From Moniliella sp. 'wahieum' (taxonomy: Eukaryota), in assembly GCA_003971905.1 (NCBI GenBank), contig RSEE01000010.1, forward strand, positions 310,001 through 374,000: DNA of 64,000 nucleotides, written 5' to 3'. The notes beneath the pieces are model-generated. The model was not told the DNA's origin and did not search any database. It saw only the letters and a list, made by a program, of their open reading frames with translations. This document shows, in pieces, positions 5,056 through 61,460 of this stretch. Within the stretch, counting starts at the first letter, position 1. Every line of letters begins with the position of its first letter. The translations under genes were made by a program, and so were the position numbers.

Positions 5056-8000
5056 GGCGGAGGAAAAAAGTGGGAGCTGGAGGTGGTGGTCAAGCGGGGA
5101 AATGCAGAATGACTGGCTGTAACTGCAGGTTATACATGGGGCCGCAGATGCCCTGTTGGGCAGGGGAGAGCAGATCGAGCCGGACGGATGTGGGATAGGC
5201 TGGTATGGCGGGATACGCTCTGGCAGGCACACCCCGTCAGGAAGGAGGGTCTGGGATGGCTGGTACGTACTCAGCCATGATGCATGATGCATCGTACTTG
5301 ATGCATGATACTGAGCAACTGAGGTACGGAGTCGGAGTGCTAACTAGTGAGTACGAGGTACTGAGTTGGGCCCTGTTGCGCCCGCTTACCCCGCGCTGCC
5401 ATCAGTAGTCCCGGTATTCAGCCGATTGGCTCGGTACGCCCAGCTCGCGTGGGTCGCATCACCCGCACGGCGTCTGTGTATGTGCACCATATGGCCGAAG
5501 GCTTCTGATTCTGGAATATCCTGTGTTGCGGCGTGGTGCATTGCTGGGCATGGCGCCGGTGTCACCAAGCGATGGTGTATCTCAACAACCACCCATCCTC
5601 ACACTGCTCTGCTGGTGCCCTCACCGCTTCCCCTGGCTGGCTGGTCTAGCCCGACGAAAATCACAGGGTCCACGTCACCGTGTCACCGTGGTCACCGTAG
5701 CGAGTCACAGGGGGTCGTCACGCTGCTGTCACGAGTGAGCGGCACGAAGGCAGTATGTGGCACTCAGAAGGGGCGCCACATGGTCTTCCACTTCGCCCCA
5801 TTTGTCCGTTTCCACCCCGTGCTCCCGCGCGCGGGGCACACCAGAGCACACCAGGGCATGGCACACCGCTGGCACATCGGGGCGAGCAGGTGCCCCAGAC
5901 CATTTTGCCGAGGCCAGCAACGGACGCTCGGCCAGGACAGTCCAGCGTAGATCCATCGTCTGCGGTGGCGCAGGTGCCGCCCTCGGCATCGCGGCTCACG
6001 CGCTCAGGCACCTCTCGTGGTTGCAGATGTTAACTTGTATGATGCAGACGGCGATTTTCATGTCGCCTATACGCTAGGCATGCAAGATCATATTCACATT
6101 GCATCCTATGGTTCCATCGCAAAAGTAAACTCAAACCCTCCACTGGAAGGTTGCTCTGGCGTGCTGTGGCGTGCTCTGGGGCCATCCTTCCCGTCTACTG
6201 AGGCCCCTGAGGCCTGAGGCCGAGGCCTGAGGTCCTGAGGGCTAGTTCTGACTTCTGACTAGTGACTAGGACTCTTGCGTTTCACGGTGCTCTCAGTGTT
6301 CGGTTGCCAAATTTCAAACTTTTTGCGGGGAGCTTCACAAGCTTCACACTCCTTAGATGTGACATGTGACATGCGAAGCTTGAAGCGTGAATTATAAATG
6401 GGGTTTTAAACCAATAGCGGTGCTTGAAAAGCCCCACTCGAATTGGGCTAGTCCTGGCCTGTCTTGGCCTGTCCTGGCTGTAGTCGTGGAGTGGCAGTGA
6501 CATGTGACATGTGACATGTTTTGTCATGTATTCCCACAGTGCTGCTAGATGTGTCCGGGAGCACTTTTGTTGTAGTAGACACATGTCTGGTGTACACACA
6601 TGCCAACACACATCTCATCTACCCAAAATGGTCCTATACCTGCCCCACCATTTTGCATGATGCATGAAGAAACTTGAAGCCTTGAAGCTGAAGCCTGGCA
6701 GCTCTCCGTCTTGGTGGATTGCATCCATTCTCTCTCTCTCCCCATAGTGTGTACCTGAGCAATGGGCAATGGGCCCGCGTGGAACCGCGTATATATATAA
6801 GCAGCGTGTTTTTGCCCCACTTTTTCAGCCATGTGTCTGGCTACTGTGGTGTGCGTATCTCTGTCTCCATACTGCAACCATATTTATTGACAGAGAGCTT
6901 AAGGCTGGGACAAAGAAACGCTTCGCCTAAACCGAGCCGTTCATCCGGCGTGTGTTGCTTAGTTGTTAGCTGTTAGCGCCAACCCCGTTTAAGGAACCAG
7001 GGAAATCGCCCACAGGAGATCGGGACCCTCCCATGCCCGTCATCCGTTCCCATACCGAGAGGTAGCGCATGTGGGTACGGATGAACGTGTTAGACACATC
7101 CAAGCGGTAAATTATCTTCATTGAGACCCTCTTAATTCCTTCCAGTACCAAGCATCTTCCCTGCTGGCTTGGTGGCATAGTATCCTCGCGTCGTCAAAAC
7201 CAAAGGGGAAAAGAGTGTTCTTCAGTGCGTCCTTTGGACTTGGCGTTCTTGTCCGCTCTCCTTGTTCCATCAGCCCAAGCAGCTCCTTCTCCTGGTGTTC
7301 CAAAGGCGTCGCAGTGATCTCTTGTCACTAGTCACTACCACCTTCCGGGTGGCAACCAGCGCCTCCTGTTTTCCCGCGGCGCGCAGCGTGTGTATAAAAG
7401 AGAGCATGATATGCATGACCTACTTGTTTAGGCTTACCACCAAGCGCAGTCCAGCGAACCAGTCTACCGTATTGGCGATACCAGCAGGACCGATGGCCGA
7501 TGCAAACCGTAACTGTGGTGGCGCACCAAGACCGGTGGAACAGTGGTTACGGTGGTTCCAAAGTGTGCAGCGACAGGAGCACCCACTCTGCGCACCCAAC
7601 CGAGGCACCCAGACGGGGCGCCACCAAGAGGAAGGGGCCAGTCCTCAATCGACACTCCGTCTCCCTCTCTCCTTCTGATCCTCTGTGCGACACACCACAG
7701 CCATGTGTTTCCCTGTTACTGACTCCCGAAAACTGTGTACCATGCCACGGTGAATATCATGGAACGTTACCCTATGTTTTGCATGCTGGAGTGAAGGTTT
7801 TTGTGGACGATGGGACGGTAGACAGCGTTGAGGATGGGAAAAGAGCGCCTGCTATGGAAAGGTGGACCAGCGGAGAAGGAAGGCCGTGGACCGTCACCAT
7901 CAGCTAGAGATGACACAGGCTGGGACGGAGCCCGAGCAGACCGGGCCGTCCCCTCGTTATTGGTGATAAAATTAGGCCTCTCCCGCTTGGATCGATGGAC

Positions 8001-8733
8001 CGGTGGAACGGTGGAACGGTGGCGAAGGTGCCGAAGGTGGCGACGGTGGCCCAGCACCCAAACCGGGCCGTATTAGGCTCTCGGTGGCCTCCTAATAGTA
8101 ATGCGATGACATAGCTGGATGTATTACATCTGCTGCTTTGATATGACGCCTGGGGGGGCTCGATCAGGAGTAACACCCCATAAACTGCATCCGCCAGTGG
8201 CTGTTGGCTTTTGATGGCGAAAAAGGTGTCCTCTGGCGTGGAGCCACCAGTACTCTCTGTGGGCATATATATGTCTTTTTTCGTTAGTCGGGGATTTTAT
8301 CGATTAAGATCCGCCACAGGCACACGGACCAATGTTTCAAGAGACTATCAACGTGAGTGCCCCAGGTGGAGCCTGGTGGCGCACACCTTACTACCTTGGG
8401 AAAATGCAACATGTGTGCTCCCCCTGGCTTGGCATCAGACATGTGATGTTCCTCCCAGAGCCCTTCGTACGGAGTACGAATACTCGGTGCGCAGCAGCAA
8501 CGCAAATACGCATGGCGGAAGACAGTGCGGAATTGAAGCGCCGCTTTCCGCCCAGGGCTGTGATCGCGTTATCAAACCACGTGGCTCCTGCCTAGTCGGG
8601 GCCTCGTCTCGCCACATTGCCTGACCCATTCACCACTGACGGTCCTGCCCCGAATGGGTGACAGCCATGCTTTGACGCCTGGATCGGTCGGCCGGGGTGT
8701 CTGCAGAGCGACCACCACCCTGTTTTCTCCCTC

Positions 8734-9704
8734 ATGAGTGCGTCGGATGCCACGTCGGGCGAGGCCAAGCCCGCGCCCCTGATCAGCTCCAATGCCTTTG
8801 GGCAGTTCGTCAACCCTGGGAAACCTATGACAGCCGCTGAGCTGCAGTCGATGAAGGATGAGTATGGGGTTGCGGTCGACCCGACCGATGCGTCACGAGA
8901 AGTGGCGGCCAAGAGGCCCAACCGGGTCTTCCTCAACCACCAAAGGTGGAAGCAGGAGCAGATTGAAAAAGGCTTGATTGATCCCGTCACGGGAAAATTC
9001 ATTGTCCGCCCCCCAACATGTTTGAACGGCTCATCGTCTCCACACTAAAAATGGCATTCCTGGGACTCGTGCTATCTCTGGCCGCAGGCCAGTTTATCGC
9101 GGGCGACCCGATCTGGGGATATCGCGCTCCATGGATGAGCAAAAAATATTGGTTCCCGGTACGTTGCTTGTTCACTTTTTGTCGATAGGAGGATGAACTG
9201 ACACCATGAGACGCCCGCCAACCAGGTCCACCAGCGTCCGTTCTCTGTATCGGAACTGGCGCTGTACAACGGACGGAGCGAGGAGCGCCCGATCTATTTG
9301 GCCATCAAGGGAGATGTTTTCGACGTCTCCGCCAAACGCTACATATATGGCCCTGGAGGAAGCTATTCATTCTTTGCCGGGCGGGACGCAAGTCGGGCGT
9401 ACGTGACCGGGTGCTTCAAGGAACACTTGACCCATGACGTTCGGGGCCTTACAGACGAGCAGCTGAAGGTATGTCACTACTCTGTTGAAAGGAGTTTCTA
9501 CTGCGCGTTATGCCATTTGTGATACTCTTGGAAGAGAAACAGGACACCCGCTAACAACTACTGTTGGACCAGACGTTGGATCAATGGCACTCCTTCTTTG
9601 AAAAAAACGACAAGTACGAGAAGGTCGGCTGGGTGTTCGACTTGCCCGAGATCGACCCTGATTCGCCCTTGTTGTCCAAGACGTGTATGGCGCAACCCGA
9701 ATAA
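8734..9704 (+). CDS. Cytochrome b5-like heme/steroid-binding (MAPR family) protein
   Basis: ELALYNG..IYLAIKGDVFDVS..YGPGGSYSFFAGRDASRAYVTGCF..W..FF...KY.KVG. Introns at about 9159-9225 and 9469-9572. Frameshift near 9010, before the hydrophobic segment. Confidence 0.88.
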
Positions 9705-10130
9705 AGCTCTTTCTCTTTCACTCTGGAAGTCGGGATGGGATGATGTCAATTTGGCTCCCCGCGTTGTAACCGCCGGGATATAGACTTTCCCCATCAAGAG
9801 TACCTGGTATGATTCATTGCCTACCAGATGGTCTGATTGATCAGCTTTATCCTTCTCTCCCTTAAAATTGGTGAATGCTTCTGAGTGTATTGGGACATCC
9901 CGCGCTTCCCTGGTGAGTCGGACACGCTTCGAGCCGTTTTCGTCAACAGACGGGCCATATTAGCGCATTGCTATAGCGCCCCTTCACAATATACACCGTC
10001 GTCGTACCATCCGCAATCAATGTTTGACGACCCAGAAAATAGCGCGGATGACAATGATGTTCCAGATGAGAAATGCAGTTGAAGGTGCAAGGTACAAGTC
10101 CAAAACAAGGGCAGAGGGCACTGGGATGAA

Positions 10131-13100: not shown

Positions 13101-13239
13101 CACCTAGGGCCGAGGGCGCTAGGCGGTGGCGGGCGGCCGAGACCAACAGCGGAGGCGCTCGACGCAAGCCACGCACGGCAAACTGTGCACGCAGTACAGC
13201 GCCAGCTGAACCAGATGCTCTGAAAGAGGGGCGAAGCAT
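10131..13239 (-). CDS. ADE3/MIS1: Trifunctional C1-tetrahydrofolate synthase with an N-terminal mitochondrial-type presequence
   Basis: Dehydrogenase/cyclohydrolase motifs ([22 protein letters not shown]) plus synthetase motifs ([33 protein letters not shown]). Intron 11654-11706. Frame change near 11128. Confidence 0.97.
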
Positions 13240-14438
13240 GCCGCACGTGGTGGAAAAGAAAGTGGCGATGGTGGTATTCGCTTGGGATTTGGTGAGTCGA
13301 GCGGACCAACACGGACTTTTGTGGTGTTGGAAAAAAAACCTTGCGGTCGTGACTGACACATTGCATGCGGAGCGCCTGCCCTGTGCTGCCGGATCCATGA
13401 TCATCGCATCGATCAAGTCCGTGCTCGCAATGGTGTAGGGTTATGGCAATCTATATCTAAGTGCATGGCAATGATATCATTTCCGAAGAGCGAGATGGCA
13501 GTGCTACACCAACCACCCTTGCCCTACCCTCTTGCGCCTGCAGTCGTTTGTAGCGGGTTTCGCACCACTTGTAGCTGGTAGTACCTTCAGCAGTTCTGTA
13601 CGCCCGGCGCCTTGTCCTGGTGCCCAAAAATCAGCTTAATCGGAGTGTGTGAACGACGGGGATGAGCAAAGAGGAAACATATGCGCAGTGGACGGCAGTA
13701 AATTTTTGAAAGGTGAGATCTGAGAGGGCAAGCATTTGCGGCCGTGTGTAGTATGCACCCGTTTCAAGAATCGTTTTCTTGAGGACATATGGGTCCATCT
13801 GCTGAATGGAATGCGCCAACTATACAAGCTTGGATCTCGCACAAATTATTGTATGGTGGAAAGCCCACAGACACCAGTGCTCCCATATGGCACGACTAGA
13901 GTGTTGTGTGCCCATCAGGTTTTGTCACAGAATTGAACTCACTACCTGACGAGCGCTGAGGACAACACGGAACAGCACTCTGTAGTAAATCCGGTAAAAG
14001 CTGTAGATGAAACCGTTGCGAGCGCGTGAGAGGTCAGCCTGATGTCGCATAATGACCTCACCCCGCTCGAGAGACACTCCATAACACCGGCAACGGATAT
14101 GAAGTTGGCTTGAATGGACCGGATATGACTCTGACTCAGTCTTCCCCCGCTTGGAGACAAGAAAAACGTGACGACATAGCTAATCGAAATTTCTAGTCAC
14201 AACGTTGCCGCCGATCTCGCCTCAAGGTGAGAAATTGATACCGTGAGTCTATGATTAGAAGTGCCACAACCCTGTACAAGAAAAGCTTGCGCAAGATGGT
14301 CGCCAAGGTCGAGACAATCTATACCCGACAGCTTGGCCCCAGGTTACCCCCACCTATCCCCACCTATCCCCGGACAGTCCGCAGCCTTGCTGGCAGGCTG
14401 GTGGCAAGGCTAGCCACAGATATTTTCACTAGGCTGGC

Positions 14439-14496
14439 GGCTAGGGTGGTGGCTAGGGTGGTGGCTAGGGTGGTGGCTAGGGTGATGGCTAGGGTG
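14439..14496 (+). repeat. Subterminal 12 bp tandem repeat (GGCTAGGGTGGT) x ~5
   Basis: Read directly from the sequence; about 260 bp inside the left TIR. Confidence 0.9.
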
Positions 14497-14672
14497 CCAC
14501 GATGCTATCAGATCAGGCAGTGGATTATCTTTAAAAGCATGCATTGCCATGGTTGTTTAGACACAGAGACGTAGAGGAGCGCCAAGGCAACGGCAGGTTG
14601 TTCGAGGAGCCTCGGGACGGCGGCAACCACAGAAGCTTTGCCTTCGTCGTTTAATCGCGGACCAAAAACATC

Positions 14673-17600
14673 ATGGGGACGCCGAGATGATAGGGATAGA
14701 AGGGCAAAGAACAAGAGCCATACAACTTGCGGCGTGGGGGCGAAGCGTCGTCGCGTTCGAGAGGGAGAATGAGTCCCGCAACCATACGGCGAACGATGAT
14801 CTGTGTGCAAGCCAGCACATGTTCTGTGGTCGTTTCCTCAACACTTGAGCGCCTTCTCCAATCATCCTGCTTAAAGGCGTTGTCAGTATATGGGCGGATA
14901 AGGACAAAGCGCAGGTACTGACCTGGCCGGGGAAACCGTCGCCGTCGACCGTCCGCTCGAAGCGCCCCCGTCGTTGATCTTCAACTCGCCTGCGGGAGGT
15001 ATGACCGGCATCTTGGCGCAAAGGATATCAGGGATCGCCAGGCGTTGCCGACTCGGTTCCGGTGGCTGCGCGTAGGTCAGTCAGTACGACAGGCATCCGC
15101 CCGGAGGGCGTGGACATACCGAGGCCAGGCGCTAGCACAGTAGCGCGTCGGCGGGGGGGCATATAATGGCAGCGCAACGAGCCGGACACATGTCACCAGC
15201 TCCGGTAGCACAGTGTGGCCAGCGAGAGAGGGGCGGTGGCGGTGGTGGTGGTAGTTGAGAGGCAAGAGCATCGGCGCAGCTGCGTGCGGTTATAGGCGCA
15301 ACCCCCGGTGGTCCACCGGCGGTCCACCCGCATGGCGCCAGTGTTGCCCCCGCACGCCACCGCCAGCTCAAGGCGCCCACCTGCAGCCTGGGCGTTTAGT
15401 ATATATATAGAGTTTTTTAAGCTACGCACTTGAGATAGTCGTGACGCGTGACAGCAGCTATATACAGCACTATACTCCAGTCCAACCGTCTCGTTGCGAG
15501 AGAAGACACATTCGCACAAGTCGCGGGCAAGAGCGAAGGGAAATTGCCTCTTTACTCGCTCAACAAAACTAAAAGGCAATCGAGAAGGTGTGCCCGCCTC
15601 GTGTGCATCGAGCAGATTGTATCAGGAGACGATGTACATTGGGTCTCCTTCGGGCGAGACCGCATTTTCCACCTCGTACATGTCCTCGAACTCGTCCATG
15701 CGCTCCAAGATGTCACAGTATCCCAATCCCTGGTCGCTCAGGGCGATGGTCCAACCCCTCAAGGACGGGTTCATTGAACAACCACACAAGGGACGATGGG
15801 ATCTGATCGGCACAAGGACTCAGCCGATGGTCATGGTCAATAAGCATCCACGCGATCTGGCTATTCACATGTACCTTGGCGAATCTGTTCCCCTGGTCGG
15901 CATTTTCGCGCCTATCTTTCCCGTCTTGTGGCAACGCGACGCTGATAGCGACTCCTGGTACGGGATCGGAATCGACCTGGTCCAAGACGAGACGTCCAAC
16001 CTGCTGAAGTTCACCGGCAAGAGAGGACACGCGCCTTCATTCTTACTCAGGTGGACATAACCAAGTTGCGCCTCTATGACGACTATACCATTGGTAAGTT
16101 TTTTCGCTCTTCACGCAGCGGCATTTTCTTGTCGGGTTGACTGATGACTTCCACATCCTGGTACGACACAGGAACAAGGGACGGTGAGGAAATTGGGAAG
16201 GGCGTCAATCCCCTTCGAGCCAAGACCTGTGGCCGAGCTCTGGTCTGTCTCCAGCTGGTGGGCTGGGCTGATGGTTTTGCAGGCAATGTGTCCAATCGGC
16301 CAAGCTCTCTGAACGGCATATGCTGCTGAACAACATGCACGTTTTACGGTTGTCGCAGTCTAGATGGGCAAAGAACCTTTTCCTCTTTGCATCGGAAACG
16401 GCCAAGTCTCTCTTCCCGTTGTGCGAGCAGTTGGTAAAACAGCTAGAGTGAGTATCGCAGTCTAGGCCAAGTTGCCTTTGAAGTCACCGTGATTCCTGGC
16501 AAAAGCAGCATGCTAACGTCTTTTTCGAACTTGCAGGCAGTATCACGAAGAGCTCATCCCTGTCTGGGATTCGACCACCGAGGGATGGATCCTGTTGTAC
16601 AGCCCGTGCTGCAGATGATAAAGGGCGACAACGTGGCCGCGAACGAGATGTGCTTCCATATGGACATGACTGCCCACGTGTGCTGCCGTTTTTGCGATTG
16701 CGGATGGCAACGGGGAACGAATATGTTGCCGGAGAACGCGGCTGACTGTCTGATGCGTATACGACACCACTGGTGTTACTGTTGTGCATCAAAATGGGAC
16801 TGACTATTACCGGCGGACACATCAAGTCGGAAGGCGATCTACATTCAAGTGTCGAAACTAGCCGCGAAGTCGATCACCAACTCGACATGGTCGTCAAGAA
16901 CGACGGCCGTGTCGACGACCGGGCGAGCCAGACCGGGGTTAAGTATATGAAAGACGTATCCTTTATCCTGTTCAAGTCCCGCAAGACTCTGGAGGACTCA
17001 GCAGGGGCGACGAATGGCAAGAAGCGCAAGAGGCTGCTTTCCAATTTGTACTCCGGCGTTCGTGAGCTGCTGGATGGGTTCAAGAATAACGGCTACGTGT
17101 TCAACCCCCTTTTGACTGTCCACGAATGGCAGGGGTGCTCGAGTTTCTCGGTCGGCAACAAGAGCCTGGCGATCGACGTCATGCACACAGTTCTCCTTGG
17201 GCCAGTCAAGGCCTCGATCGAGCTGCTGACGGACTCGAACTTCGACAAGGGGCCCTCGCTAGCGCTGTGGCTGGATTCGCTCTCAACTCGTGGGTATGGA
17301 ATCGGTGGGTCGACGGCTCAATGGCACTAAAGTGGTTCACAGCATGCGCTCAGTCACGGGGGTTGACTACAAGATATTGTGCCAGACTCTCCCTCTGGTG
17401 CTGCCCAACTTGGCGGCCACGCTACGGTTGGACTCCGCCAAGCCTGGCGTCACGGAAACGGCGCGACAGAGACTTCTGAGCAAGATTGAGAGGCTGGAGA
17501 ATGTCCGCAAGAGCATTGTGGCCGCCACACGCATTAAGTGGTTTGCTACATCGATGGCTTCGCACTTCAAGACCGGGCTACATATGGCGTACGTCTGAAA

Positions 17601-21511: not shown

Positions 21512-23704
21512 CGGTGGTGGGCCACACGGAGGGGAGGGTGGGTGCGTAGATGTATGCGAGAGGCTACGCTAGTCGAGTGGTGGTGGTGGCGTTGGGCGCT
21601 TCGCCTGAGCCTAAGCTCTAAGATCTAAGGCCGGGCCGCGGCCTACCGCGGCGCAGCAGAGTGACGGCATGGAACCTGGCGCGTGCAAAATTGAAACTAT
21701 TCGTCCTGTCATTTAACAATTCACAGTTGCGCGCCGCCTGGGTCGTGTAACACTGCCGCACATCGTCACGCTTTCCAAGCGCAGGCCGTGAGCGTGGCGC
21801 CTCTCACCACGATGCATGATGGTACTTTGGCTTTACAAATACAATGGCTCGCCCCACTGGGAACATTTCCCATATCCATTCACCATATACTAGTGCAAGG
21901 GCAACAATAAAACCAAGAGATAAAACCAAGAGATGCTGTTCGTCCTGTACTAGGACGCACCGACATTGTGTCCGCTTTTGTCATGAAGCAAATCAAAATG
22001 TATACAAGGGCAGACTGTCAAAAAGAGTGGCTACTTGTATTATACCGCGCTTCAATTTCCTACGACTCTCCACATCACGCGACAGCCGCTGTGGCTCTGG
22101 GGGATTCCTCCAGAACAGTGTTCTATGCCATCGAATCTCTGATTCCATGACAGAAGGGCGTATCAGTGGATACGCGCCCCCCCCCCCCCCAACTGCCTCA
22201 GGCCTCAAGCTTCAAGTCACCGTCTCTCTCCTGCGATGTCCTGGTTCTATCTTTCCGCAAGAAGACCAGCAGCAACGTCCTAGTCGCATCATGCATCATG
22301 CACCACCCATCAGTTCAGACAACATGATGCATTGCATTTGCATGACAATATTTGTTTCTTCGTCCCACACACGGTACTATATTCGGCACGCAGCATCACA
22401 TGCCATTTTCGTTTGACGACTTTTGCGCGCGTTCAACTGGTCACCGTGACCGTGGCCTGCCAACATGTCAGCTACCAACCTGACCAACCCGGTCAACTGA
22501 CCTTTCCATGAACACCTTTTCTCTCCTCCGGCCTTGCATCAGTGCATCAGCTCGAGAGAGGGAAGCCGCGCCCTACCGGCTACCAGAGGAGCGTGCTGAG
22601 ACCTAGCCGACGCGTCGACGCGTGAACGCCTCAACGTTCAGCACGTTCAACATTCAATATTCAACGTTCGACACGTCCAACGTTGAACATCCCGTGAACT
22701 GCCATGCTATGATGAAAAGACCATGCTTGAGACGTTTTGGCTTGGTTTTGCTCCATGGGGTGGGTTGGCGTGGCTTTTGTTGACTGGGTGATCCTTCGAC
22801 TAAAGACTCGGCTGCATTAGCATTAGTGACCGGCTCTTGTGCATGTGAAAAGCCGTGACGCGTGACGCGTGACGGTGAGCTGGGCGGGTGCTTTTCATGG
22901 CTGGTTTGCGAGTTGCTTGCCATCAGACGCGTCCCAAAAGGATGGAGGATGCCAACCTCAGCTGGATACTTGTAGCACTGGCACTGAAGCTTGAAGCCTC
23001 ACTGGGGCCTGAGGGATCGATAAAGCTAGTCAGGTCGATCGGAACAAGGACAGGGACAAGAACATGAGACGGGTGTTGGGGCACGTCAAAAGACACCGCG
23101 GCGGCGAATCCAACACGTGTGGTCACCAGTGTCACGTGACGCGTTCGGGGGCAGGTGACAGTGACAGTGACATGTGATGTTGGTGTCACAGTGGGCCAGT
23201 GGCGGGCGCTGCGTTGGCAGGCGCTGCGCGTTGCTCCGCGGTGGATAGTGGGCAGCGGCGATGGCTGGCGCGGAGCGAACGGCGAGCACAGCCGCCAGGC
23301 AGCCCCTTGCAGCTTGCAGCCCTCGCGCCTGGCAGCCCTTTTGCGGCGAGAGAGGCGTGTGGCGGATTAGCTAAGAGCGCGTCCGCGTGGCTGGGCATTC
23401 AATTCCAGTTCCATCTGGCGCTTGCGCGGCGCAGCGCTGGCGTGGCCGCATGCTGAACGTTGAACGTCAACTACTGAACGTTCAAGTGCGTGCCGCACGC
23501 AGCGTTGAAGTTCAACTGGACGCGCAGCCAACAAGCCAGCACAAGCCCCGCCAGCGTCCGCTCGCCACACACGCCGCCGCCGACACCAGCAGACCGACAG
23601 CCACGCGGCAGCCCTTGGTGCCCTCGCCTCGCCCCCGCTCTCCGCCTCCTCTCCACCACCCCGTGCGCGAGTGCAAGCGCGGCCCGCGCACCGCTCGCAC
23701 ACCC

Positions 23705-28005: not shown

Positions 28006-28318
28006 CGGATATCAGAGCGGGCGACGGGGCCGCGCCTTCCTTCCTTCCTTCCTTTGATCAACAGTGTAGCATACCTAACATTTCCACCGTTCCCCATGCG
28101 CGCTCTTTCCGCCTTTGCTCCTCTCTAATGCCACATGCCACATGTCACCCCCTCCCTACCCCGCCCCATGCACCTCACGTATCCACCCAGCTTCTAACTT
28201 GTCGCCCAGCACGTGTGGGCTGCCATGGCAGCTTGAGTGCATTGAATGCTAGCAGTTGTACACTGTTCCGGCTTGGGTGCGGTGGCATAGAGAGGCAGAA
28301 AGAAGGCAGAGACCGAAG

Positions 28319-28669: not shown

Positions 28670-30489
28670 CGTGCTGGAAGGGTAATGCGGTAACGGGGGA
28701 CGGAAGGGGTAAGAGACAGAGGGGGGCAGGGGAGGGGTGCGGGAAAGGTCCAGAACAGGTGGGCGTACCCTGGCTTATATAGATGTGGAGCGATCGGTTT
28801 CCGCGTAGATCGTGCCCGGCGGCCCCCCGTCCCAGCCGGCAAGATAAGCCGCGTCACGCCTCCGGTGGAGAGCGGCGGGGGCGTGCCGGTCCCGAGCATG
28901 ACGTCACGCTATTACCTAATTAGTGAGGTCTGTGCACGCTGGCAACCCCTGGCAGCCCCCCCGCAGGCGGAATTGCGGGCGAACGCAATGGTTACCAGTT
29001 ACAGCTTCAATATTCAATTCAACATTCAACATTCAATCCGCTACGGCCTTCGGCCCCACAGATGCTCCGATTCAGACGACACTTCCTCCCCCATCCCACC
29101 GTCATCGTCATTGCAATTCATGCTCCCCGCTCCATGATGCACGATGCGCGCAAGTCGTCAGGAAGGGACGTGTAACGTGGATCTTTAAATAGCACCGTGC
29201 AATCGCGACGCGCGTGTGTGTGTATTATCGGGGAGAGGGACGGATCGTAGCCGCGAGGGATCGTCTCAGGCGCCATGATCGATGATCGATGATCGGTACC
29301 CGTCATGGCTCGCTTCCGGGCGCATGTGCCTTGTGGGATATGCTGATAGACAGCCACCCGACGCGCCAACAGCATTGGCAAGGAGGGAAAACTGTAAAAT
29401 GCTAGGCAAAAACGAGATGTTCTCGCGTCCTATTATTACATGTACAGACGAATGAAGACCTTTTACTGATCGAGCTGGTGAACGTGAAGTGCGAAGAACT
29501 ACGAAGGATAGGATCGAATCGCATGTCGTATGCGCCATATTATTACTCTCGTTGGATACGACTGGAACCTCTCCCCCACCCGGGCCCGGACTTCTTCCCG
29601 CCCAACTGTACAGAAGGCAAGAAGGGCACTGTCATGGGGGGGGTCCCGAGGTGGGACCCCCCCTGTAATAGAAGGTGGAAGGGCGAGAGAGGAACTGGTA
29701 GTCGAGGAGACCAACGGTAAGAGACAGAATGGTTGACAAGGACCACAGCTAGTAAGCCTTAGACATTATGGCTGCTTATATACCGCAGAAGGAACCAGGC
29801 CCTAAGCGCCTCATGATAGGTATAGACAGAATGCGGGGCACTTCCCAGAAAGGTAAAGACTAATGCACAGCCCTTGCTTCCCAAGGTGCTGACGCTGCGC
29901 AGTCGGGCGCAGCAGGAAGGATTCTGACAAGACTGGACGCAATAGGCACAAAGCATCGTACCGCTGAGCCCATGCGACCACGGCGGGCCGCGGATGATAT
30001 CCGCAGCAAGGATAAGGGTGGCTCTTTCTCGCTAGTCTAACCGGACTGACGCATGTTGGGCTGCGATGTCTACGACATGCGGGGCTCAGCGTCCGGAGAT
30101 AACCCGAGCGCTCCGTAACATTCCCAGACAAGTATTGTGGGACCTCACTATAGGGTGGTGGCACCGGTGGCCAAAAGCGTGGTTCCCTTTTCGGGACATT
30201 CCTTCCAATATTACTTCCTGGAGAGGGCAGAAATATTGTCTAGTCTCTGTGGCTCGTGTGCAGTGCAATATACACCATCAAGACGCTCAACGTTCAACTG
30301 AACAGCTTGCTCTCTCCGGCCTTCTACAGGTATATAATGTGTGCGGGTCTTATTCATTTCCTGTACTGTAGGCCATATATGCGCCCTATTCATGCGGTCC
30401 GTTCAAGTCTACAAAAGCTCTGTTTTGGTTACCGCATAGGCGGCAACGTTTTGAAGCTTGAGTCCTTGAAGCTTGAAAAGAGAGTTGAA

Positions 30490-31002
30490 CGTCGAGCCAC
30501 CGAACTTGCGTGTTTGGCCAAAAGGTCCCTTCAGCCCCGTCATCGACCTTGGCATCTCAGATCTCAGACCTCATCAGGCCTATGAGTTCCGGTTTTCTCG
30601 CTTCTGTCTTCCTGAATTGTCCTATAACCTCTATATAGACCCTGGTGGCGATCGACTGCTTCATTCTGTAGGTGTTCCTCGTTGGGTAGATGATGAGACC
30701 TGGAGTCCAGATGGTCCTCGAGGGTGATGCAATCGCACTAGTGGTGGTGGTGGTGGTCTAAGCCAACCAGCAACGCCTACAGAGGAACATCAAGCAGCGA
30801 GTCGCCACCAGGGGCTAAGCTGCGGAACAAGGAAAAACAGGATATAGAAAAACAACGGAACTCCTAGGCCTGTGAGGAGGAACTGAAGGGACATTGGCCA
30901 AAGCACGAGCCACCTGATGGCTCAACAGTAGGCTATCACACAGCTACTATAGTGCGATTGCATCACCCTGGATGACCATCATCAGGACTCCAGGACTCGT
31001 CA
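30490..31002 (-). mobile_element. Older degenerate LTR of the same family, split by a younger LTR insertion
   Basis: 30490-30690 matches the reverse complement of the LTR 3' part. 30928-31002 matches the 5' part (AGTGCGATTGCATCACCCT...CAGGACTCGTCA). Confidence 0.75.
30691..30927 (+). mobile_element. Solo LTR, 237 bp, TSD GTAGA/GTAGG
   Basis: TGATGAG...CTCAACA ends. Highly similar to 1788-2020. Flanks 30686-30690 and 30928-30932 match at 4 of 5 bases. Confidence 0.9.
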
Positions 31003-32797: not shown

Positions 32798-33453
32798 ATG
32801 TGAGTACTGATGTCCATGTGCGCCCGGGAGGCAGAAGGAGACGTCAAACGTCCGTATGATACTGAGGGGCAACTTTTCTGGTGCCCCTGTGGCTATCATT
32901 CCTTCACGATTTTGTCGGACGACGAGGGGAAAGCTGGGACAACGGGGACGTGGCGTACGAGAAGCTTGACCCGGAATTTTGGATGCTGACCCACCTGTGC
33001 AGGGACTCCTATGACGCTGCTGAGGCGGCTGCCCTTAAGGCCCGCCGGACCTTCAAGAAGTCGTACTACCGTGGGATTGAGCTTTCGAAGCTCCTTGACC
33101 TGAGCAACGAGGAGTTCATGGGCATTGTTCACGCCCGTGCCCGTCGTCGCTTCCAACGTGGCCTCAAGCGCAAGCCTATGGGCCTCATCAAGAAGCTGCG
33201 CAAGGCCAAGCAGGAGGCTCCTCCCAACGAGAAGCCCGCCCTTGTCAAGACCCACTTGCGTAACATGATTGTCGTGCCCGAGATGATCGGTTCGGTCATT
33301 GGTATTTACACCGGTAAGGTTTTTGCAACGGTCGAGATTAAGCCTGAGATGGTTGCCCACTACCTCGGTGAGTTCGCCATGACCTACCTGCCTTCGGCCC
33401 ACGGTCGCCCCGGTCTCGGCGCTCAGGCGGGCCGGTTCATTCCCCTCAAGTAA
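32798..33453 (+). CDS. RPS15: 40S ribosomal protein S15 (uS19)
   Basis: Start codon split AT|G by intron 32800-33002 (GTGAGT..GCTGAC..CAG). [43 protein letters not shown]. Confidence 0.95.
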
Positions 33454-38074: not shown

Positions 38075-39723
38075 GGTGGATGGTTGGTGGTCTGCGAAAC
38101 GCGCACGCTTGAGATGGGGTGGTGGCAAGCGAGGAGTGCGGCGCCGTCTCTTTTGGGTCTTGTTGCGCATTGCGCCACAGCCGCAGCGCGATGCCCGCAC
38201 CGAAGCGAGCCATAAGCACCGCATTTGCCCTGTGGCAGGCGCAGTGCCCCGGCTGCCCCGCACCGCCGCATCCTCCTCCATCCGTGCGAGAGGCGGGGCG
38301 TCCGCAGCGGAGCAGTGTGGCTGTGGCCTCTCGTTGCCGCGTATCCGGCGACGCTTAGCCCCAGGAGTCCAGCGTCCATCGACCAGGATTGCATCTATGC
38401 GTCATGCGTCATGCATCATGGACCACAACTCAGTCGCCCGCAAAAGGTGTATATAAAGCACGCATCATGCGTGGGATCCAAGATCTAAGTCTCTGAGAGG
38501 CCTGCGTCGGGGATCCGGTGACCCACCATGCATCAGTGCATCACCCATGTCGCTGTGGGCGACGGTACCATCACCGTAACCCGTCACCAGCCTTACTGGA
38601 TAAACTACCAGAAGCCCATCCTAGTCGCGCACACCTCTGCAGGGGGCGAAGAGGAGGAAGGTGTGGCGTTTTGATGGCAGAACTGATGGATTAAGCGAAA
38701 CTTATTGTAGCACTGAGTACTGAATGAAAGTGGGGTAGTCTCAGCACAACTCTTCTTTTCATTCATCTCAATCCCCTCTCAATCTCAAGTGACGTTCAAC
38801 TGAGCGTTCAACAAGTTCAATGTTCAACTTGAACTCGCAACTACATCTCCCTCCGACAAACATACCGCATTGTTTGTCCATTTGTTTACGTCGGAGACCT
38901 TTCGCTTGAAACCTTCCACGTAGAAGAAGGACTACAAGGCATCGTGCTCCAGTAAAAGGTGACGAGGTGCCACAGTGATGACATGCCAGACATGTCAGGC
39001 CTCACAGTCTGAGGACCGAGCCTCAGGGCCTCAGGGCCTCAGACCTCAGTATGCTATGAAGCTTGAAGAGCATAGAAGAAGGGGATCGGAGAGATCCGAG
39101 TGTGGCTGACACGCTGAAGGGTGGAACGCGCCCATGTCACAGTGCCACTCAAAAAGCACTCTACTATCTCCGCTGTGCTGTCTACGCGAGAGACTGTGAC
39201 ATGTGGCATGTGAACTGTGAACTCACAGCGCGGGGGCGGAGCGCCTTTAAGCTCTAAGCTTCACGGCCGGGATGCCGTTGGGTCGGAACCAGGCACCAGC
39301 CGTTTTATGCGGCAGGCTGGGCAAACGGACAGATAATGTGCAACTGTCGATAATCGACTCGATAACGGCTGTGCGAGCATCGGCCATCGGGTGGTTGCAG
39401 TCCTTGGCGCGCCCCAAGCGAGGGTGGCGCGGGGAACGCGGGTAGAGGCCCGGCGACTGATAGATCAACATTGCAATTTTTTTGTCGGTTGCCAGCTGCT
39501 GGTCACGATTAACTTTGCTGCGGGGTGGGACGTTGGATGCTGGTCAAGACGGCCTGGACAGCGAGCCTGATATTGATACCTGTACTTACCCATCGACGGA
39601 TAATCCTATTCCAGATCCCAGCCAGCTGCTTCCCCACTCCAGTGTCTCTGCCACCGCCTCCGTAGCAACCACTCTGCCGCCTCGCGGCCCGTCGTGCCGA
39701 CGTGCTCTGGGTGCAGTCCGCCG

Positions 39724-43520: not shown

Positions 43521-43549
43521 TTGCGCCGTCGGATTGGCTTGTGGATAGC

Positions 43550-43601
43550 TGTGTACTATGTACTGTGTACTATGTACTGTGTACTGTGTACTGTGTACTG
43601 T
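43550..43601. repeat. 7-mer microsatellite (T[G/A]TGTAC) x ~7
   Basis: TGTGTACTATGTACTGTGTACTATGTACTGTGTACTGTGTACTGTGTAC between convergent 3' ends. Confidence 0.92.
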
Positions 43602-43984
43602 GAATGTACGTTTGCAAGATATTGAGCATGCGACCTAGAGAGGCAAATGGCATAGACCACACAGGAGATGAGAGAGCACCACAAGTTAAACACAGAAGCG
43701 AGAAAGAAGAAATGGGTGAGAAAGGAAAGGGGAGAGTAAAATGGAAAGGGATGAACTTGTGGAAGAGAAGGTAGAAAGAGAAACAGGCAAGAAAGGCGCA
43801 AGAACCGTTGCAATGAACGGTATGAACAACCCAGATTCCAGGGTAAGAGATGATCGCTGAGGCACAGTTGCAATGACGTCCCAAAATGAGCCGGAAGGGA
43901 AGGGGCATGAGGCTAATTGGGCGGGGGGAGGGGGGTCTAGAGGAGATGGGCGAAAAGGCCAAAAACGTGCACGGATGTAAGGGA

Positions 43985-46137: not shown

Positions 46138-48949
46138 AGTGGAAGCGACTCGAGGGTAGGGTAGGGTGGGGAGAGGAGGCGGTGAAGGCAGGGGGTGGGG
46201 GGCATGGCACGCGCACCGACGCGCGCAGACGAGGGGAGAGGGGGGGAGGAGGAGGAGGAAGAGGAGGAGAAAAAGGTGGCGGTGGTGGGATGGGAGGAGG
46301 AGGGGGAGGGGGTGGCGGGCCACCAACCAACTAATCCTGCGATACCTTACCGTCCTGGTCGGCTGGAGCGCCGACCCGACGGATGAAAAGAAATCATCGA
46401 TGGCTACATGACTCGTGAAGATGACTATCATCGATCACCGGTGCAGAGTGGGAAAAAACAGGTGTGGGGCCGGTAGTGCAAACTGTAAGCTGCAAATCAC
46501 CCGTGTCACCGGTGAACACCCGAATGGCCCAGAGGCAGAGGATAGCTCGTGTATAGTCACCGGTCACCGGTCACCAGCCACCTGTCGCAAGTCATCGTAA
46601 CGGGGTAAGGCCGGTAACCGACCGGTATAGCCGACAAGCGGCAACCACGTGAGCTGCCCAAGCGCCAACGCTGCCCACAGAAACTGGCTTTTTGTCCGCC
46701 GATATTGGCGGACCTGCAGGTGGGCAGGCGCGGTGTTTGCGTCCTGAGGCCTCGCTTCCTGCCTCGTCCCAAGGCCTTAACCGCTGCCCATCTGAACGTG
46801 AGGTTGAACGTTGGTTGAGGCCCGTGGTGCTGAGGGAGGCCAGCGCGTTATTGCAAGACTAATAAGAGGCAAGACGCCTGTGATTTGATGTGATTAATGA
46901 TTCTGCCGGCGCTGAACGCGTGAACGCACTGAACGTGCGACGTACGAACGTACGTTGAATGTCCCCCGATTGTGATCGATGTGATCTCCCCGTGGGGGTA
47001 CCCGGGCCAACAGGAGGGGCACAGGACCAGCGGGAGGGAGGCACCGTGCCACCACTGCCTCAAACTTTCCCAGCTTCAACGTCTTCAACAGGTTCCAACG
47101 CCTCCAAAGTTCGACCCAACCGCGGCTGCGAGTCACTGTGGAGAAAATGTGGGGGAGCTTTTAGGGCAGAGGGCGAGGGCAGGGGTGAGTGCATGCGAGG
47201 ACATACGGCATACCGGCCATACCAGACACCCGATATGTCAGTGAGATCTGAATCTCAGATCCCATTCCAATGCACCGGCTAATAGGAATCACCTTCTAGT
47301 AAGTTTTGGTACAGTGTGGGTGGCGTGGTGTGGGCTACGCGCTACACGTTATTAGTAAAAACACTTTCGTATCAAAACATGTTATTTTGCCCCGGCTCAC
47401 AGGCTCAGTGCTCGCTCAGTGCTGGATCCATCAGCTGCCGACGGCGTCTGCTCTCGTGCTCCCGGTCGGCTCTGCTTAAGAAATCAACCGTACTGACCGT
47501 TACGCGTTATAGACCCCACGCCCTTCCGGATCCCACTGTAGCCACTTGCCTGCCACTCCTCAGGCGAAAGACCTAAGACCTTGCAGCGCTAATGGGCCTA
47601 ACGCCGGTCGACGTTCCCAAGCGGGCTGTGGCGAGGGAGCACTCGTCGTCACGCGTCAGCGCTCAGCTGGCATATAACTTCTTGCTGGTTACTGTCGCAG
47701 TTTCTGCCGGGGCGCTGCAAGAGGCAAGAGGCAACCGGTAAGTGCCAAGAGCCAAGAGCTAAGATCGAAGAGACGGTCTCCTGCCTTCTCCAGCGCACAA
47801 GCCACTGTGTTGGGCGTGCGTATACGTAGGCTGCTCGGCCGCTGCCTGCTTTGCTGGTTGGTGGATACAGGCGCAGGGCGCAGGGCCCACAACGCTGCAT
47901 GTGGGGGCCGGGGGATCACACAATACATCACACGTTCCACATCACGCGTAACATATAACACCCTACTGGGGCCTTTGCAGCATTGCGTTCAAGCTGAAAC
48001 GTAAAACTGTGCATACCATCAGTGTGATGCGACGCTACACGGCCCTCCCCCTCGTCCTCCGTATCAGTCTACCCGTCTCTCCTCCGATCGCAGAGGGCAG
48101 GCCTTCTGCCTGATCCGCATGGCCCAATCCCCCAGCCACACGAGAAGCACATTACGTGGCACGTCCATCCCTTCCCTGGCGTTAAGCTTAGCTTCATTAG
48201 CTTCATTTCCCTCCCGTTTGCCCATCTGCATCACCGGGGGAAAGGCCGGTTACTATTACTAGCTTTACTAGTCACGGTCACTAGTCACTGGTCACTGGGT
48301 CGCTGGCACCTTTCCCATGGGTCTCATGATCTCATCTATCTCACGATCTCATCATCGATCGAATGGCTGGGTAGGTCTACGTAGGGATGCTTCGCGCTTC
48401 TCCGCGATCCCCTCGTCGTTCCTCCAGCTCGCATGGATTTCCCGCGATATACGATACTTTATCCGCGTACCATTGTGCATGAGGCTCATGAGTCTCAGGC
48501 ATGACGCAGACGCATGAACAAACAACTTGGAGCCTCGCCCTGCCTCGCGACAGCCACAGCCTGGTTTGTATCGACAGTGTCTCGACAGGTCTCAACTCGG
48601 TCTGAGTTCTGAGCCTACTCAGACTCACTCAGACTCAGTGCCCCGCGTGTACCACCTTTACTCACTCAACGAGACAACCCCCCCGCCGCGGTTGTTTATT
48701 GTGGACACCAGCTCCCCCTCGTCCCAACCTCCATCTTCGCCCCGTCCCGCTCTCGGAGTCAGTCCTCCAGCCCTTACTCTAGCTAACCCTTCTCATCCCA
48801 TCCACCGCGCCCACCCGAGTCGGGTTTTGGTGCGTGTGGCTGGCTGGCTGAACGGCTGGCTAGCAATTTCGTACACCTTGTCGACATGTCCAACCGGGGT
48901 ACGACGATAGAATTTCTGGATACCACTATTCCCCACCCACGCGTGCGCA

Positions 48950-50726: not shown

Positions 50727-51251
50727 TCCGGTCCTGTGTCCAGCAGACGTGGTGGTAGTGGTGGTGGTGATGGTGGTGATACCAGCGGCCGAGTCGAGTG
50801 GAGCCTCAGCAGCCAGGCTGGCTACCCCCATCGCCGCTTCGAGTCCGCGGGCTGGCAGCTGCCCGACGGATCGGGCGCTCCAGTCGAGGCCCAGGCAGGG
50901 GGGCAGCGTAGCCCCGGGGCGTGACCGCTAGGGTTGTGCTTACCCAGTGCTGTCGTGCCTGCGTGCGACAGCCAGCCAACCCAGCGGCCCCAACGGCCCA
51001 GCCGAAACCATCCCCCAGCGGTCAGGTGACCTCACCCCTCATCCCCTCACCGGTTTGCTCGGGCAGCTGCATCGTCCATTATTCCATCTTGGCCCCCATC
51101 TCTATGTTGAGCATGTCTATAGCGGGTTACTAGCGCCGGCCAATTTGGGCGAAAGGGTAGCTGTTGATGCCAGGGTCCAGAGAGGGAAATGATTCATTAA
51201 TCATTGCAAGCTCGACGGCATTGCATGGAGCAAACACAATGCAATGCTAGC

Positions 51252-57140: not shown

Positions 57141-57764
57141 GGTGTGAGTGGGGCAGGGGGCGCAGCGGCGGCGTGCTGGCGTCGAAGCGTATCGGGTATC
57201 CGGGGGAGGTGAGTGCTGATGCGTTGAGCGTGGGCGTGACGGCGTGGGGGTCTCCACCGCAGGGTTAGGAGGATCCGCCCGCGCGCCACATCGGTGCATC
57301 CCGCAGGCAATCATAATCAGCCGGCGCAGCACATCGGAATGCAGCCACGCAGACTCCGCCTCCTCCTGTCCAGGCCAGCCGACCGTACCATCGAGCTGAC
57401 CCTCTGATGTCATCGACCGCAGCAACCCAATTCCGCCCGGTACACTGAGCCAGCTTGATGAATTGATTGTTCGCCGCCGATGCATGATGCACTGACGCGT
57501 GATTAATGATTGACGATTCGAGTAGCCAGCGAGTGATCTGTCGCGCTAGTCACGTGCTTCTGGCCCCTGATCCTGTGCATGCGACGTGTGGCGGCAGGAG
57601 GCGGGACTGCTTCAAGTTTCAGGCTCAGGGAGCTTCAGGTGCAAACGGAATGTGAGTGTGACAAAAGTGACACTGGTTTATCACCTGACATGCTGACGCG
57701 GGACATGTGAAACTAGCAGAGACGTGACGCGCGTGACGCGTGATGGAGTTTGAAAAGTGAAATT

Positions 57765-58027
57765 TGAGGAGGTCGGAGTCCTGCATAGTCCTGAGGCCCG
57801 GAGGTCTGAGGGAGGCCTGAGGCCGGATGCAAACGTCCTCCTCCTTTACAACAACGCCTACAGAGAGCATCAAGCAGCCAGTCGCCCCCAGGAGCTAGGT
57901 TGTGGAACAAAGAAAACTGAAGCGAAAAAGCAACGGAACTCCTAGGCCTGAGGCCTGAGAGGGACTGAAGCTTGAAGCTTGAAGGAAGGGACGTATCTAG
58001 TTGGCCAAAACATACGGTGGCTCAGCA
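57765..58027 (+). mobile_element. Degenerate LTR of the same family, with internal heptamer expansions
   Basis: CAACGCCTACAGAG..CATCAAGCAGC.AGTCGCC.CCAGG.GCTA..GGAACAA..CAACGGAACTCCTAGGCCTGAG..TTGGCCAAA..GGCTCAGCA. Left boundary approximate; no TSD seen. Confidence 0.78.
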
Positions 58028-58933
58028 GGGTTAGCGCGTGACGGGTGGGTGCGTGATATGGTGCTCTGACGGTCACGCCCTTCACATGTGATGCTTGCGC
58101 AGCGACAGACACTGTTTGGCAGTTGGTGACTACTGTGACTAGGCGGCAGGTGACAAGGTGACTAGGTGACCGGCGTCTTCGTGACATGTGACATGTGACA
58201 GGTTTTGGTCCGGTGACGCGGTGACGCGACGTGTGACATGTGACGAGCGAATGGCTAGGGTGTCGAATTAAGAATTGGGCCTTGGGGCCGCTGGCTGGGT
58301 TGGGGCTGGGCCGAGCAGCGCAACTTGCTACGGCGCTGCACAGCACAGACACCGGGCGAGCGTCCACCAGCCGTCGGGGGGGCTGCGACCTCGGGGCCTA
58401 GCTGGCCTCGCAGGGCGTCGCAGCACCCGCACCAGTACCCAGTGTGAATTGCTAGGTGGCTACCGGTATAGCTTCGAGCAGTACATCCCGCTTCCCGTAT
58501 CCACTGTGGCCTACTGCTGCGCACTTGCTCACCCACTGACGCATGATCGATGATCCCGCAGTTCAGTAGACGGGCGCATCATGCATCATGCATCATGCCC
58601 ATCATGCGTCCCCACCCCATCCCACATCCCGCATTGCATCATGCATCACATGCGTCACCGCGTCACCATCCCCCGGGCGCGCAGACAGTGTTGAATTTTG
58701 CAATGTTGCACGTGTGAACGTCACTGGCGGAGTACGGCCGTACTGAACGTGCATCCAGCGTGCAGAACACTGAACGTCTGAACAGCGGCCACTGCGTCAC
58801 TCGTCGCTGTGCCCGTCGCTGGCCGGAGTAGGGCGGAGGCCCAGGCCAGGACAGCAGCATGTGCGACAGCTACTCTGCCAAGCCGCTTGGTTGACTGGCC
58901 TGCCTGCCCGTCTGTCTTGGGCCCCAACGTTAA

Positions 58934-61460
<2,527 letters not shown>

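Follow-up and report, generated by a model that had tools for sequence, protein, structure and literature searches.

The 64-kb window analyzed here (the whole stretch of 64,000 nucleotides [nt] from position 310,001 to 374,000 of contig RSEE01000010.1, assembly GCA_003971905.1, from Moniliella sp. 'wahieum') has a G+C content of 57% and carries fungal genes with long open reading frames and few introns. These code for a Zn2Cys6/Fungal_trans factor, an OPT transporter (on the minus strand), a trifunctional C1-tetrahydrofolate synthase, Vps54, a syntaxin, a WD40 protein, several kinases, the start of a SAM-domain kinase, and a protein of the ribosomal S19 family. A Ca/H exchanger gene and an anthrone-oxygenase-like gene are also found next to the repeat clusters described below. 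The closest named relative of the Ca/H exchanger is from Tilletiaria anomala (63% sequence identity), followed by those from Sympodiomycopsis, Ceraceosorus, and Tilletia. Accordingly, the window is assigned to the nuclear DNA of a Ustilaginomycotina-like (smut-lineage) basidiomycete. The subject of the present analysis is a heptameric repeat pattern in the DNA upstream of the genes, in which the trinucleotide TGA or TCA recurs with a period of 7 bp and is separated by a self-complementary tetramer.

We refer to TGA and TCA jointly as TSA (S is G or C) and define an event as two TSA trinucleotides of the same polarity which enclose a self-complementary tetramer (TSA-N4-TSA). This arrangement is present at all 19 positions quoted in a preliminary description of the window, and the excess of palindromic spacers reported there is real. 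Among the 96 same-polarity TSA-N4-TSA sequences in the window, 59 have a palindromic spacer (37 of 58 for TGA and 22 of 38 for TCA), compared to a mean of 2.1 and a maximum of 7 in 200 dinucleotide-preserving shuffles. When all 64 trinucleotides are pooled, 157 of 1720 spacers are palindromic (9%), and palindromic tetramers account for 5.9% of the background. Within the non-coding segments (24,993 bp) the ratio is 59 of 84; Markov models of these segments (200 simulations each) yielded means of 0.8 to 1.8 (maximum 6) for orders 1 to 4 and a mean of 6.1 (maximum 13) for order 5. Unrelated metagenome DNA (446,382 bases) served as a control and shows 10 palindromic spacers out of 160 (6.2%), which corresponds to the 1/16 baseline. 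The control DNA consists of 80 short, distant contigs around relatives of the Ca/H exchanger and is unsuited as orthologous intergenic DNA. On one of these contigs two of three spacers are palindromic, with flanks that do not agree, and this was judged to be chance.

The pattern also holds up against other spacer lengths and other trinucleotides. It is confined to a spacer of four bases (palindromes in 5 of 35 cases for a spacer of 2, 1 of 54 for 6, and 0 of 35 for 8), to TGA and TCA (1 of 7 for TAA, 3 of 7 for TTA), and to direct polarity (1 of 11 for TGA..TCA and 2 of 10 for TCA..TGA, together 3 of 21). It had been stated that 15 of the 16 possible palindromes are used and that TATA is missing. 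These counts are correct, but the lack of TATA carries no weight because this palindrome is expected only 2.3 times; overall, palindrome usage fits the dinucleotides which flank unused TSA sites (chi-square 17.9, 15 degrees of freedom). The grammar can be restated: TSA and xy.y'x' in tandem (with primes for complementary bases) is the 7-bp odd palindrome y'x'-T-S-A-xy arranged head to tail. Exact period-7 duplications occur 36 times in the window, vs. 2.8 times in shuffles (13-fold enrichment); TSA-centred odd palindromes make up 19 of these, and 11 have no TSA. There are 49 maximal chains, 39 with one palindrome and 10 with two (three of the latter being mixed, i.e., with two different palindromes), and arrays reach up to 3.3 copies. 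No description of this heptamer pattern was found in open-access full text and bioRxiv (subscription literature being outside the scope of that search).

Several promoters additionally contain decayed TGAACG/GTTCA runs of the ACGT family (46912-46960, 38795-38835, 58740-58790, and 22625-22700). These represent older, mutated arrays of the same kind, which suggests that the activity extends over a long period. The longest period-7 array of the window is found elsewhere, in a convergent 3' region without TSA events (43549-43602, CTGTGTA in 7.7 copies, alternating TGT/TAT with GTAC). It has a palindromic tetramer, with neither TSA nor odd-palindrome symmetry.

According to the preliminary description, a pattern constrained in its symmetry and not in its sequence is indicative of a generating mechanism, as opposed to a protein-binding site or ordinary slippage. 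This argument is borne out: the local flank serves as the template of the spacer, palindrome usage follows flank composition, and heptamer units occur as insertions in a copy of a dispersed repeat (see below). The rule is that a site ab-TSA-cd is converted to ab-TSA-cd.d'c'-TSA-cd, or to the mirror image of this. Proceeding outward from the chains, the period-7 match ends after exactly 2 nt beyond TSA and then drops to about 0.3. The match frequencies are 0.73, 0.67, 0.33, and 0.39 at downstream positions +1 to +4, and 0.65, 0.51, 0.37, and 0.37 at upstream positions -1 to -4; the inner flank base is thus complementary more often than the outer one. Of the 49 chains, 9 fit the rule on both flanks, 30 on one flank, and 10 on neither flank, so that at least one flank fits in 39. 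For the 59 junctions, the spacer fits only the downstream dinucleotide in 21 cases (dinucleotide followed by its reverse complement), only the upstream dinucleotide in 13 (reverse complement followed by the dinucleotide), both in 14, and neither in 11, with one or both fitting in 48. The two flanks are used equally (24 vs. 24 when oriented). In two of the three mixed chains (22198 and 47649) both palindromes match their own outer flank, and in the third (57493) this applies to the downstream palindrome only. As the spacers of the 22198 chain are built from the outer flank on their own side, two separate events must have occurred there at one TCA.

The size of the duplicated unit can be read from symmetric duplications centred on TSA. 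Those of 7 bp occur 18 times, vs. 0.12 in 100 shuffles; the corresponding values are 38 vs. 33.6 at 3 bp and 6 vs. 2.2 at 5 bp, and none were found for 9 and 11 bp. Plain 7-bp duplications with a centred TSA are present at four positions (6247, 29017, 38400, and 39209; 0.1 expected from shuffles). In companion junctions the two heptamers are separated by one or two bases which are the reverse complement of the adjacent flank, as is typical for P nucleotides. In five of the six '7+2' junctions (period 9) in the TSA register, the two intervening bases are the reverse complement of the neighbouring dinucleotide (TGTGATC-GA-TGTGATC, CTTCAAC-GT-CTTCAAC, CTTCATT-AG-CTTCATT, CTTCACA-AG-CTTCACA, and CGTGACG-CG-CGTGACG), compared to 8 of 92 in the remaining 62 trinucleotide registers. 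Similarly, four of the five '7+1' junctions (period 8) are of the P type, with one reverse-complement base. The initial T is found in 59 of 80 cases and the final A in 59 of 68 (first and last unit, respectively). Both bases are required, and therefore both TSAs derive from the target. We conclude that the repeated TSA is probably the centre of a 7-bp target-site duplication, for which the observed direct polarity is expected.

Two other derivations were rejected. The whole odd palindrome might be a P extension of 3 nt from a flank that begins with S-A, which conflicts with the requirement for the first T and the last A. An asymmetric 5-bp duplication (TSANN) with 2 P bases is at odds with the lack of plain TSANN duplications (0 vs. 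2.1 expected) and is also contradicted by the period-9 junctions, which repeat the upstream dinucleotide and not the complement of TS.

The events and companion junctions in the window are as follows (coordinates are window positions; a strand applies only to the copy of a dispersed repeat, where it is given):

5278..7334, cluster upstream of the OPT transporter gene, with chains at 5278, 5299, 6208, 6256, 6360, 6498-6514 (CATG twice), 6658, and 7325
6247..6260, plain 7-bp duplication (TCTGACT twice), TGA exactly central, no P nucleotides
6333..6348, 7+2 junction CTTCACA-AG-CTTCACA, AG being the reverse complement of the adjacent CT
6673..6687, 7+1 junction CTTGAAG-C-CTTGAAG, a single P nucleotide lying between the heptamers
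13714..15451, upstream of the C1-tetrahydrofolate synthase gene, one event each at 13714 (GATC) and 15442 (CGCG)
22198..22214, mixed chain cc-TCA-GGCC-TCA-AGCT-TCA-ag, with both palindromes built from their respective outer flanks
22289..23463, remainder of the cluster to which the mixed chain at 22198 belongs, in the divergent promoter of the Ca/H exchanger and SAM-domain kinase genes, with chains at 22289, 22631, 22654, 22856-22872 (CGCG twice), 22985, 23168, and 23454
29007..30566, cluster between the 3' end of the kinase gene and the anthrone-oxygenase-like gene, with chains at 29007, 29276-29292 (TCGA twice), 30287, 30452, 30467, and 30557
29017-29030, plain 7-bp duplication within the preceding cluster
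32801..32810, single event (GTAC) upstream of the ribosomal protein S19-family gene
38400..39222, cluster in the divergent promoter of the syntaxin and Zn2Cys6 factor genes, with chains at 38409, 38714, 38995, and 39057
38400-38413 and 39209-39222, plain 7-bp duplications in the same divergent promoter
39021-39035, 7+1 junction CCTCAGG-G-CCTCAGG, also in this promoter
46428..48287, cluster with chains at 46428, 46557-46573 (CCGG twice), 46891, 47242, 47649-47665 (mixed), and 48278
46971..46986, 7+2 junction TGTGATC-GA-TGTGATC, GA being the reverse complement of the adjacent TC
47074..47089, 7+2 junction CTTCAAC-GT-CTTCAAC
47649-47665, mixed chain cg-TCA-CGCG-TCA-GCGC-TCA-gc, each palindrome matching its own flank
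48192..48207, 7+2 junction CTTCATT-AG-CTTCATT, AG being the reverse complement of the following CT
51194..51203, single event (TTAA)
57493..58667, richest cluster, in the divergent promoter of the Vps54 and kinase genes, with chains at 57493-57509 (mixed, CGCG/TTAA), 57734, 57758, 57949, 57966-57982 (AGCT twice), 58182-58198 (CATG twice), 58234, 58544, 58579-58595 (TGCA twice), and 58639
57723-57738, 7+2 junction, and 58212-58226 and 58653-58667, 7+1 junctions, all in the Vps54/kinase promoter cluster
57849..58020, plus strand, partial copy of a dispersed repeat, with TGAGGCC inserted after GGCC and with CTTGAAG-CTTGAAG-GAAG after ACTGAAG
61728..62202, three single events preceding the last gene of the window (61728, CATG; 62147, AATT; 62193, CATG)

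The clustering in intergenic and promoter DNA, which had been noticed before, is found for 53 of the 59 events when these are compared with open reading frames of at least 200 amino acids; the remaining six are located at frame edges, and all 59 are intergenic once four segment boundaries are shifted outward by at most about 150 bp. TSA sites themselves are evenly distributed (1001 outside and 1002 inside such frames). Segments which contain a 5' gene end carry 59 events per 651 TSA sites, with 28 per 217 in the divergent promoters among them. There are 0 events per 240 TSA sites in the 3', convergent, unassigned, and repeat-relic segments. The overall density is about 2 scars per kb of non-coding DNA. 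Selection against frameshifts would explain why genes are free of scars, but does not account for their absence from 3' regions, which may rather reflect a preference for open promoter DNA. According to sections of PMC7534453, the hAT element Hermes favours nucleosome-free promoter DNA in yeasts.

A before/after comparison is provided by a dispersed repeat which resembles a miniature inverted-repeat transposable element (MITE) and has four copies in the window: 1-210 (minus strand), 1788-2021 (plus strand), 30691-31002 (plus strand), and the partial copy at 57849-58020 (plus strand), for which 57849-57970 was recorded as the extent of the repeat itself. The copy at 30691-31002 is complete, with a length of about 312 bp and inverted ends of about 50 nt which start with TGAYGAG. 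The first two copies face each other, and the 1.6 kb between them contain no long open reading frame. In the four-copy alignment, the site ACTGAAG|GGAC is intact in three copies, and the partial copy at 57849-58020 reads ACTGAAG-CTTGAAG-CTTGAAG-GAAG-GGAC. At the site GGCC-TGA-GG, three of the four copies have a different small indel, one of which is a clean TGAGGCC. The heptamer units have thus been added by insertion at TGA sites of DNA without obvious function, and repeatedly so at a palindromic site. The MITE-like family was rejected as the source of the scars, as its ends show no 7-bp duplication and no recognizable target duplication. The partial copy also holds a 7-bp insertion of another kind, ATCTAGT (57995-58001), which is located between GGACGT and TGGCCAA, where there is no TGA or TCA.

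A direct duplication of fixed length which has reverse-complement bases at its inner edge is typical of DNA transposons that copy their target on entry and exit by way of flank hairpins. We thus consider it likely, with a probability of about 0.6, that a cut-and-paste DNA transposon which makes hairpins on the flanking DNA left the heptamers as footprints of its excision, and that these became stacked by repeated visits. Hairpins on flanking DNA are formed by hAT, Transib, MULE, and RAG systems; they are opened by the host, and end joining then leaves footprints (sections of PMC5499845). For Ac/Ds in Candida, yeast, and plants, the footprints described in PMC5873905 consist of short deletions together with insertions of palindromic P nucleotides, with main types that are host-specific. 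Target-site duplications of 7 bp are on record for basidiomycete elements, namely hAT7 from rust fungi and Kyakuja (PMC12730594), and palindromic T...A signatures (nTnnnnAn, nnnTAnnn) for the targets of hAT elements (PMC10512250).

We infer a transposon as the break-maker, a hairpin intermediate, hairpin opening at 2 nt from the tip, and an overlap-and-ligate type of joining. The element would integrate at a 7-bp site NN-T-[G/C]-A-NN (ab-TSA-cd) and duplicate it. Upon excision, hairpin-capped ends would form on the flanking DNA, which host enzymes would open mostly at 2 nt from the tip, resulting in the 4-nt self-complementary 3' overhangs cd.d'c' and b'a'.ab. RAG/Artemis likewise opens hairpins preferentially 2 nt from the tip, which gives a 4-nt overhang. 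The two overhangs would overlap fully and be ligated, with mismatches resolved to one version, so that ab-TSA-[cd d'c' or b'a' ab]-TSA-cd is obtained, in net terms 7 bp longer than the original site. The plain, 7+1, and 7+2 forms may arise when the hairpin on one side is opened at its tip or 1 nt off. Each event would leave a new and more palindromic TSA target, the overhangs of which match perfectly, and later visits could build short arrays from it. A preference for open promoter DNA together with selection against frameshifts would then confine the scars to 5' intergenic DNA. Overlap and ligation of two overhangs may be the reason why the dominant product has a single palindrome from either flank, and would account for the more frequent complementarity of the inner flank base; the step was added to explain why products with both overhangs kept or both trimmed are not seen. 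By analogy, the chemistry would be that known from hAT, Transib, MULE, and RAG, and it is its scale and regularity that are unusual.

A number of observations weigh against excision footprints. No element was found between 7-bp NN-TSA-NN duplications in the window, the sole dispersed repeat family present there is devoid of such a duplication, and no transposase Pfam domain was detected in the 62 open reading frames of the window that were scanned. Matches to the terminal motif of Puccinia hAT7 show no enrichment (96 vs. 82 expected). The TSA-TSA product, with both overhangs trimmed, is not enriched either (38 vs. 34.3), and TSA-pal4-pal4-TSA, with both overhangs kept, has 0 occurrences. The palindromes are even, with their centre between two bases, unlike the Ac/Ds type described in PMC5873905. 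Neither flank fits in 11 of the 59 junctions, the ATCTAGT insertion falls outside the model, and about 2 scars per kb is a very high density for non-coding DNA in a window that is nearly transposon-free. The case rests on a single 64-kb window. As to candidate elements, inverted ends between direct repeats of TSA or NN-TSA-NN in the window are limited to three weak candidates and the arrays themselves. A pair of the 7-mer CGTCCCA, each next to a 14-nt inverted sequence with one mismatch (22930-22950 and 26346-26366), is found 3.4 kb apart. About 0.1 such pairs are expected by chance (a rough estimate) and the interval includes the beginning of the SAM-domain kinase gene; the pair is probably a coincidence.

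As the main alternative, the breaks could be due to a host process without a mobile element, in which a domesticated transposase or a site-specific nuclease or recombinase makes 7-bp staggered breaks at promoter NN-TSA-NN sites, followed by fill-in and hairpin or turn-around repair. This would fit with the lack of both an element and a transposase in the 64 kb, with the very strict TSA specificity and the very high, promoter-confined density, and with the fact that CC-TGA-GG was struck independently in three of the four repeat copies. A single window cannot, however, prove that an element is absent from the genome, and one hairpin-forming cut would add just 2 P bases and leave TSA unduplicated. 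To our knowledge, only integration followed by excision gives a direct duplication of fixed length together with P nucleotides at its inner boundary, and we thus regard the host process as doubtful. Replication slippage of hairpin-prone, quasi-palindromic heptamers, similar to microsatellite dynamics, is clearly less probable still. It would accommodate the general enrichment of exact period-7 duplications (36 vs. 2.8, with 11 of the 36 lacking TSA), the arrays of up to 3.3 copies, and the many decayed variants. Yet 39 of the 49 chains consist of a single junction and not of an expansion, the phase is fixed at 2 nt on either side of TSA, and the restriction to TGA/TCA centres is left unexplained. 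Moreover, the palindrome is made from one flank, with the other flank mismatching, in 34 of the 59 junctions, reverse-complement junctions of the 7+2 and 7+1 types are not predicted, and the partial repeat copy at 57849-58020 has gained CT-TGA-AG units where the other copies read AC-TGA-AG.

If a transposon of the PIF/Harbinger or CACTA type duplicated just the 3-bp TSA and left two terminal bases of each inverted end, the product would be TSA + xy.y'x' + TSA. Direct polarity and the palindromic tetramer would follow, the inverted-repeat ends being complementary, and the odd-palindromic target resembles the TWA of PIF/Harbinger. We consider this very unlikely: the tetramer tracks the local flank and not an element terminus (39 of 49 chains), 15 families would be needed for 15 different tetramers, the plain 7-bp and 7+2 junctions copy flanks too, TSATSA shows no enrichment (38 vs. 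33.6 to 34.3), and TSA-flanked elements with inverted ends were not found in the window, the three weak candidates aside. Just as little probability is assigned to selected cis-regulatory arrays of tandem half-sites (e.g., bZIP-like TGAC). The strictly promoter location and the TGAC or ACGCGT-like strings in several units would agree with these. The spacer, though, is free in sequence and tracks the composition of the flanks, whereas a factor would either fix or ignore the spacer, as has been argued before; units are inserted inside a repeat relic, and the series of P-nucleotide junctions has no regulatory rationale. Some scars may be in secondary use as binding sites. That the pattern stems from assembly or sequencing is hardly conceivable: we know of no artefact that gives such a pattern, and the confinement to 5' intergenic DNA, the flank rule, the decay series, and the otherwise normal, unique sequence around the events all speak against this.

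For the excision-footprint interpretation, hAT elements (Ac/Ds, Hermes) are a close comparison. They would share flank hairpins and end-joined P-nucleotide scars with host-specific main types (sections of PMC5499845 and PMC5873905), a preference for promoters (PMC7534453), and, in the case of hAT7 from rust fungi, a 7-bp target duplication (PMC12730594). Their targets have palindromic T...A signatures (PMC10512250), and the site NN-T-S-A-NN would be an odd-length analogue of the nTnnnnAn and nnnTAnnn types. The differences are that Ac/Ds palindromes, as described in PMC5873905, are centred on the complement of the element-adjacent base, whereas those found here are even (cd.d'c') and centred on the duplication boundary; that the T-[G/C]-A centre is far stricter than reported hAT preferences; and that the window has neither a hAT terminus nor a hAT transposase. 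No account of stacking into arrays at such a density was found for any system. Kyakuja, of the KDZ group, also has 7-bp target duplications in Basidiomycota (PMC12730594), and is compared by duplication size. Its termini are CA..TG and it lacks inverted repeats, and the window offers no element for comparison.

V(D)J coding joints (made by RAG with Artemis) and Transib would resemble the present scars in that a hairpin forms at the exact flank boundary and is opened off-centre, resulting in even palindromes. Transib and RAG make duplications of 5 bp, a size that is excluded here by the counts (symmetric 6 vs. 2.2; TSANN 0 vs. 2.1) in favour of 7 bp, and V(D)J recombination acts at fixed gene segments, whereas the scars are scattered through promoters. 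The flank-hairpin chemistry is common to hAT and MULE as well, according to PMC5499845. The resemblance to Sleeping Beauty, a Tc1/mariner element, concerns the proposed joining step: like overhangs overlap, an internal mismatch is resolved either way, and the result is a stereotyped odd-palindrome scar. The canonical Tc1/mariner footprint is TA-C[A/T]G-TA. The overhangs of Sleeping Beauty come from the element ends, without a hairpin, and the target is TA with a 2-bp duplication. TWA of PIF/Harbinger is similar in its 3-nt odd-palindromic core with T and A fixed; canonical Harbinger elements duplicate 3 bp (PMC12730594), whereas 7 bp but not 3 bp is enriched here.

The density, the regularity, and the promoter restriction of the scars are what makes them of interest. 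Should they be excision footprints, they would amount to a dense and readable archive of past cut-and-paste transposition, kept by a genome which now looks almost transposon-free. Their regularity would reveal the target of the element (7 bp with a TGA/TCA centre), the position at which the host opens hairpins (mostly 2 nt), and its end-joining habit. Excision scars could then seed short tandem repeats and a steady supply of 7-bp promoter variants, which bears on the evolution of compact fungal promoters. Rather than relics of an ordinary, extinct transposon, the scars might even be the work of an agent which combines the strict 7-bp NN-T-[G/C]-A-NN target with hairpin chemistry at an exact boundary, either a new superfamily or subgroup of DNA transposons in Ustilaginomycotina, or a domesticated transposase which breaks and reseals promoters, an idea that we put forward as speculative. 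With either such agent, the rewriting of promoters would proceed continuously in steps of 7 bp, and a site-by-site record of thousands of transposition events would be kept in the genome. The fraction of palindromic spacers in TSA-N4-TSA provides a simple sequence test for the same activity in other fungal genomes.

Other repeats in the window are of a more common type. A minisatellite with a 30-bp unit (52540-52721, about 6 copies, 80% identity) is located within open reading frames of the region which also encodes the Vps54-like protein and probably represents a coding repeat. A 12-bp repeat (CTAGGGTGGTGG, 5.7 copies) occupies intergenic positions 14429-14496, upstream of the C1-tetrahydrofolate synthase gene. 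A long imperfect TCC repeat (58959-59105, about 50 units) and a GGA-rich tract on the opposite strand, 12.7 kb away (46231-46319), were flagged as inverted repeats and are simple low-complexity sequence.

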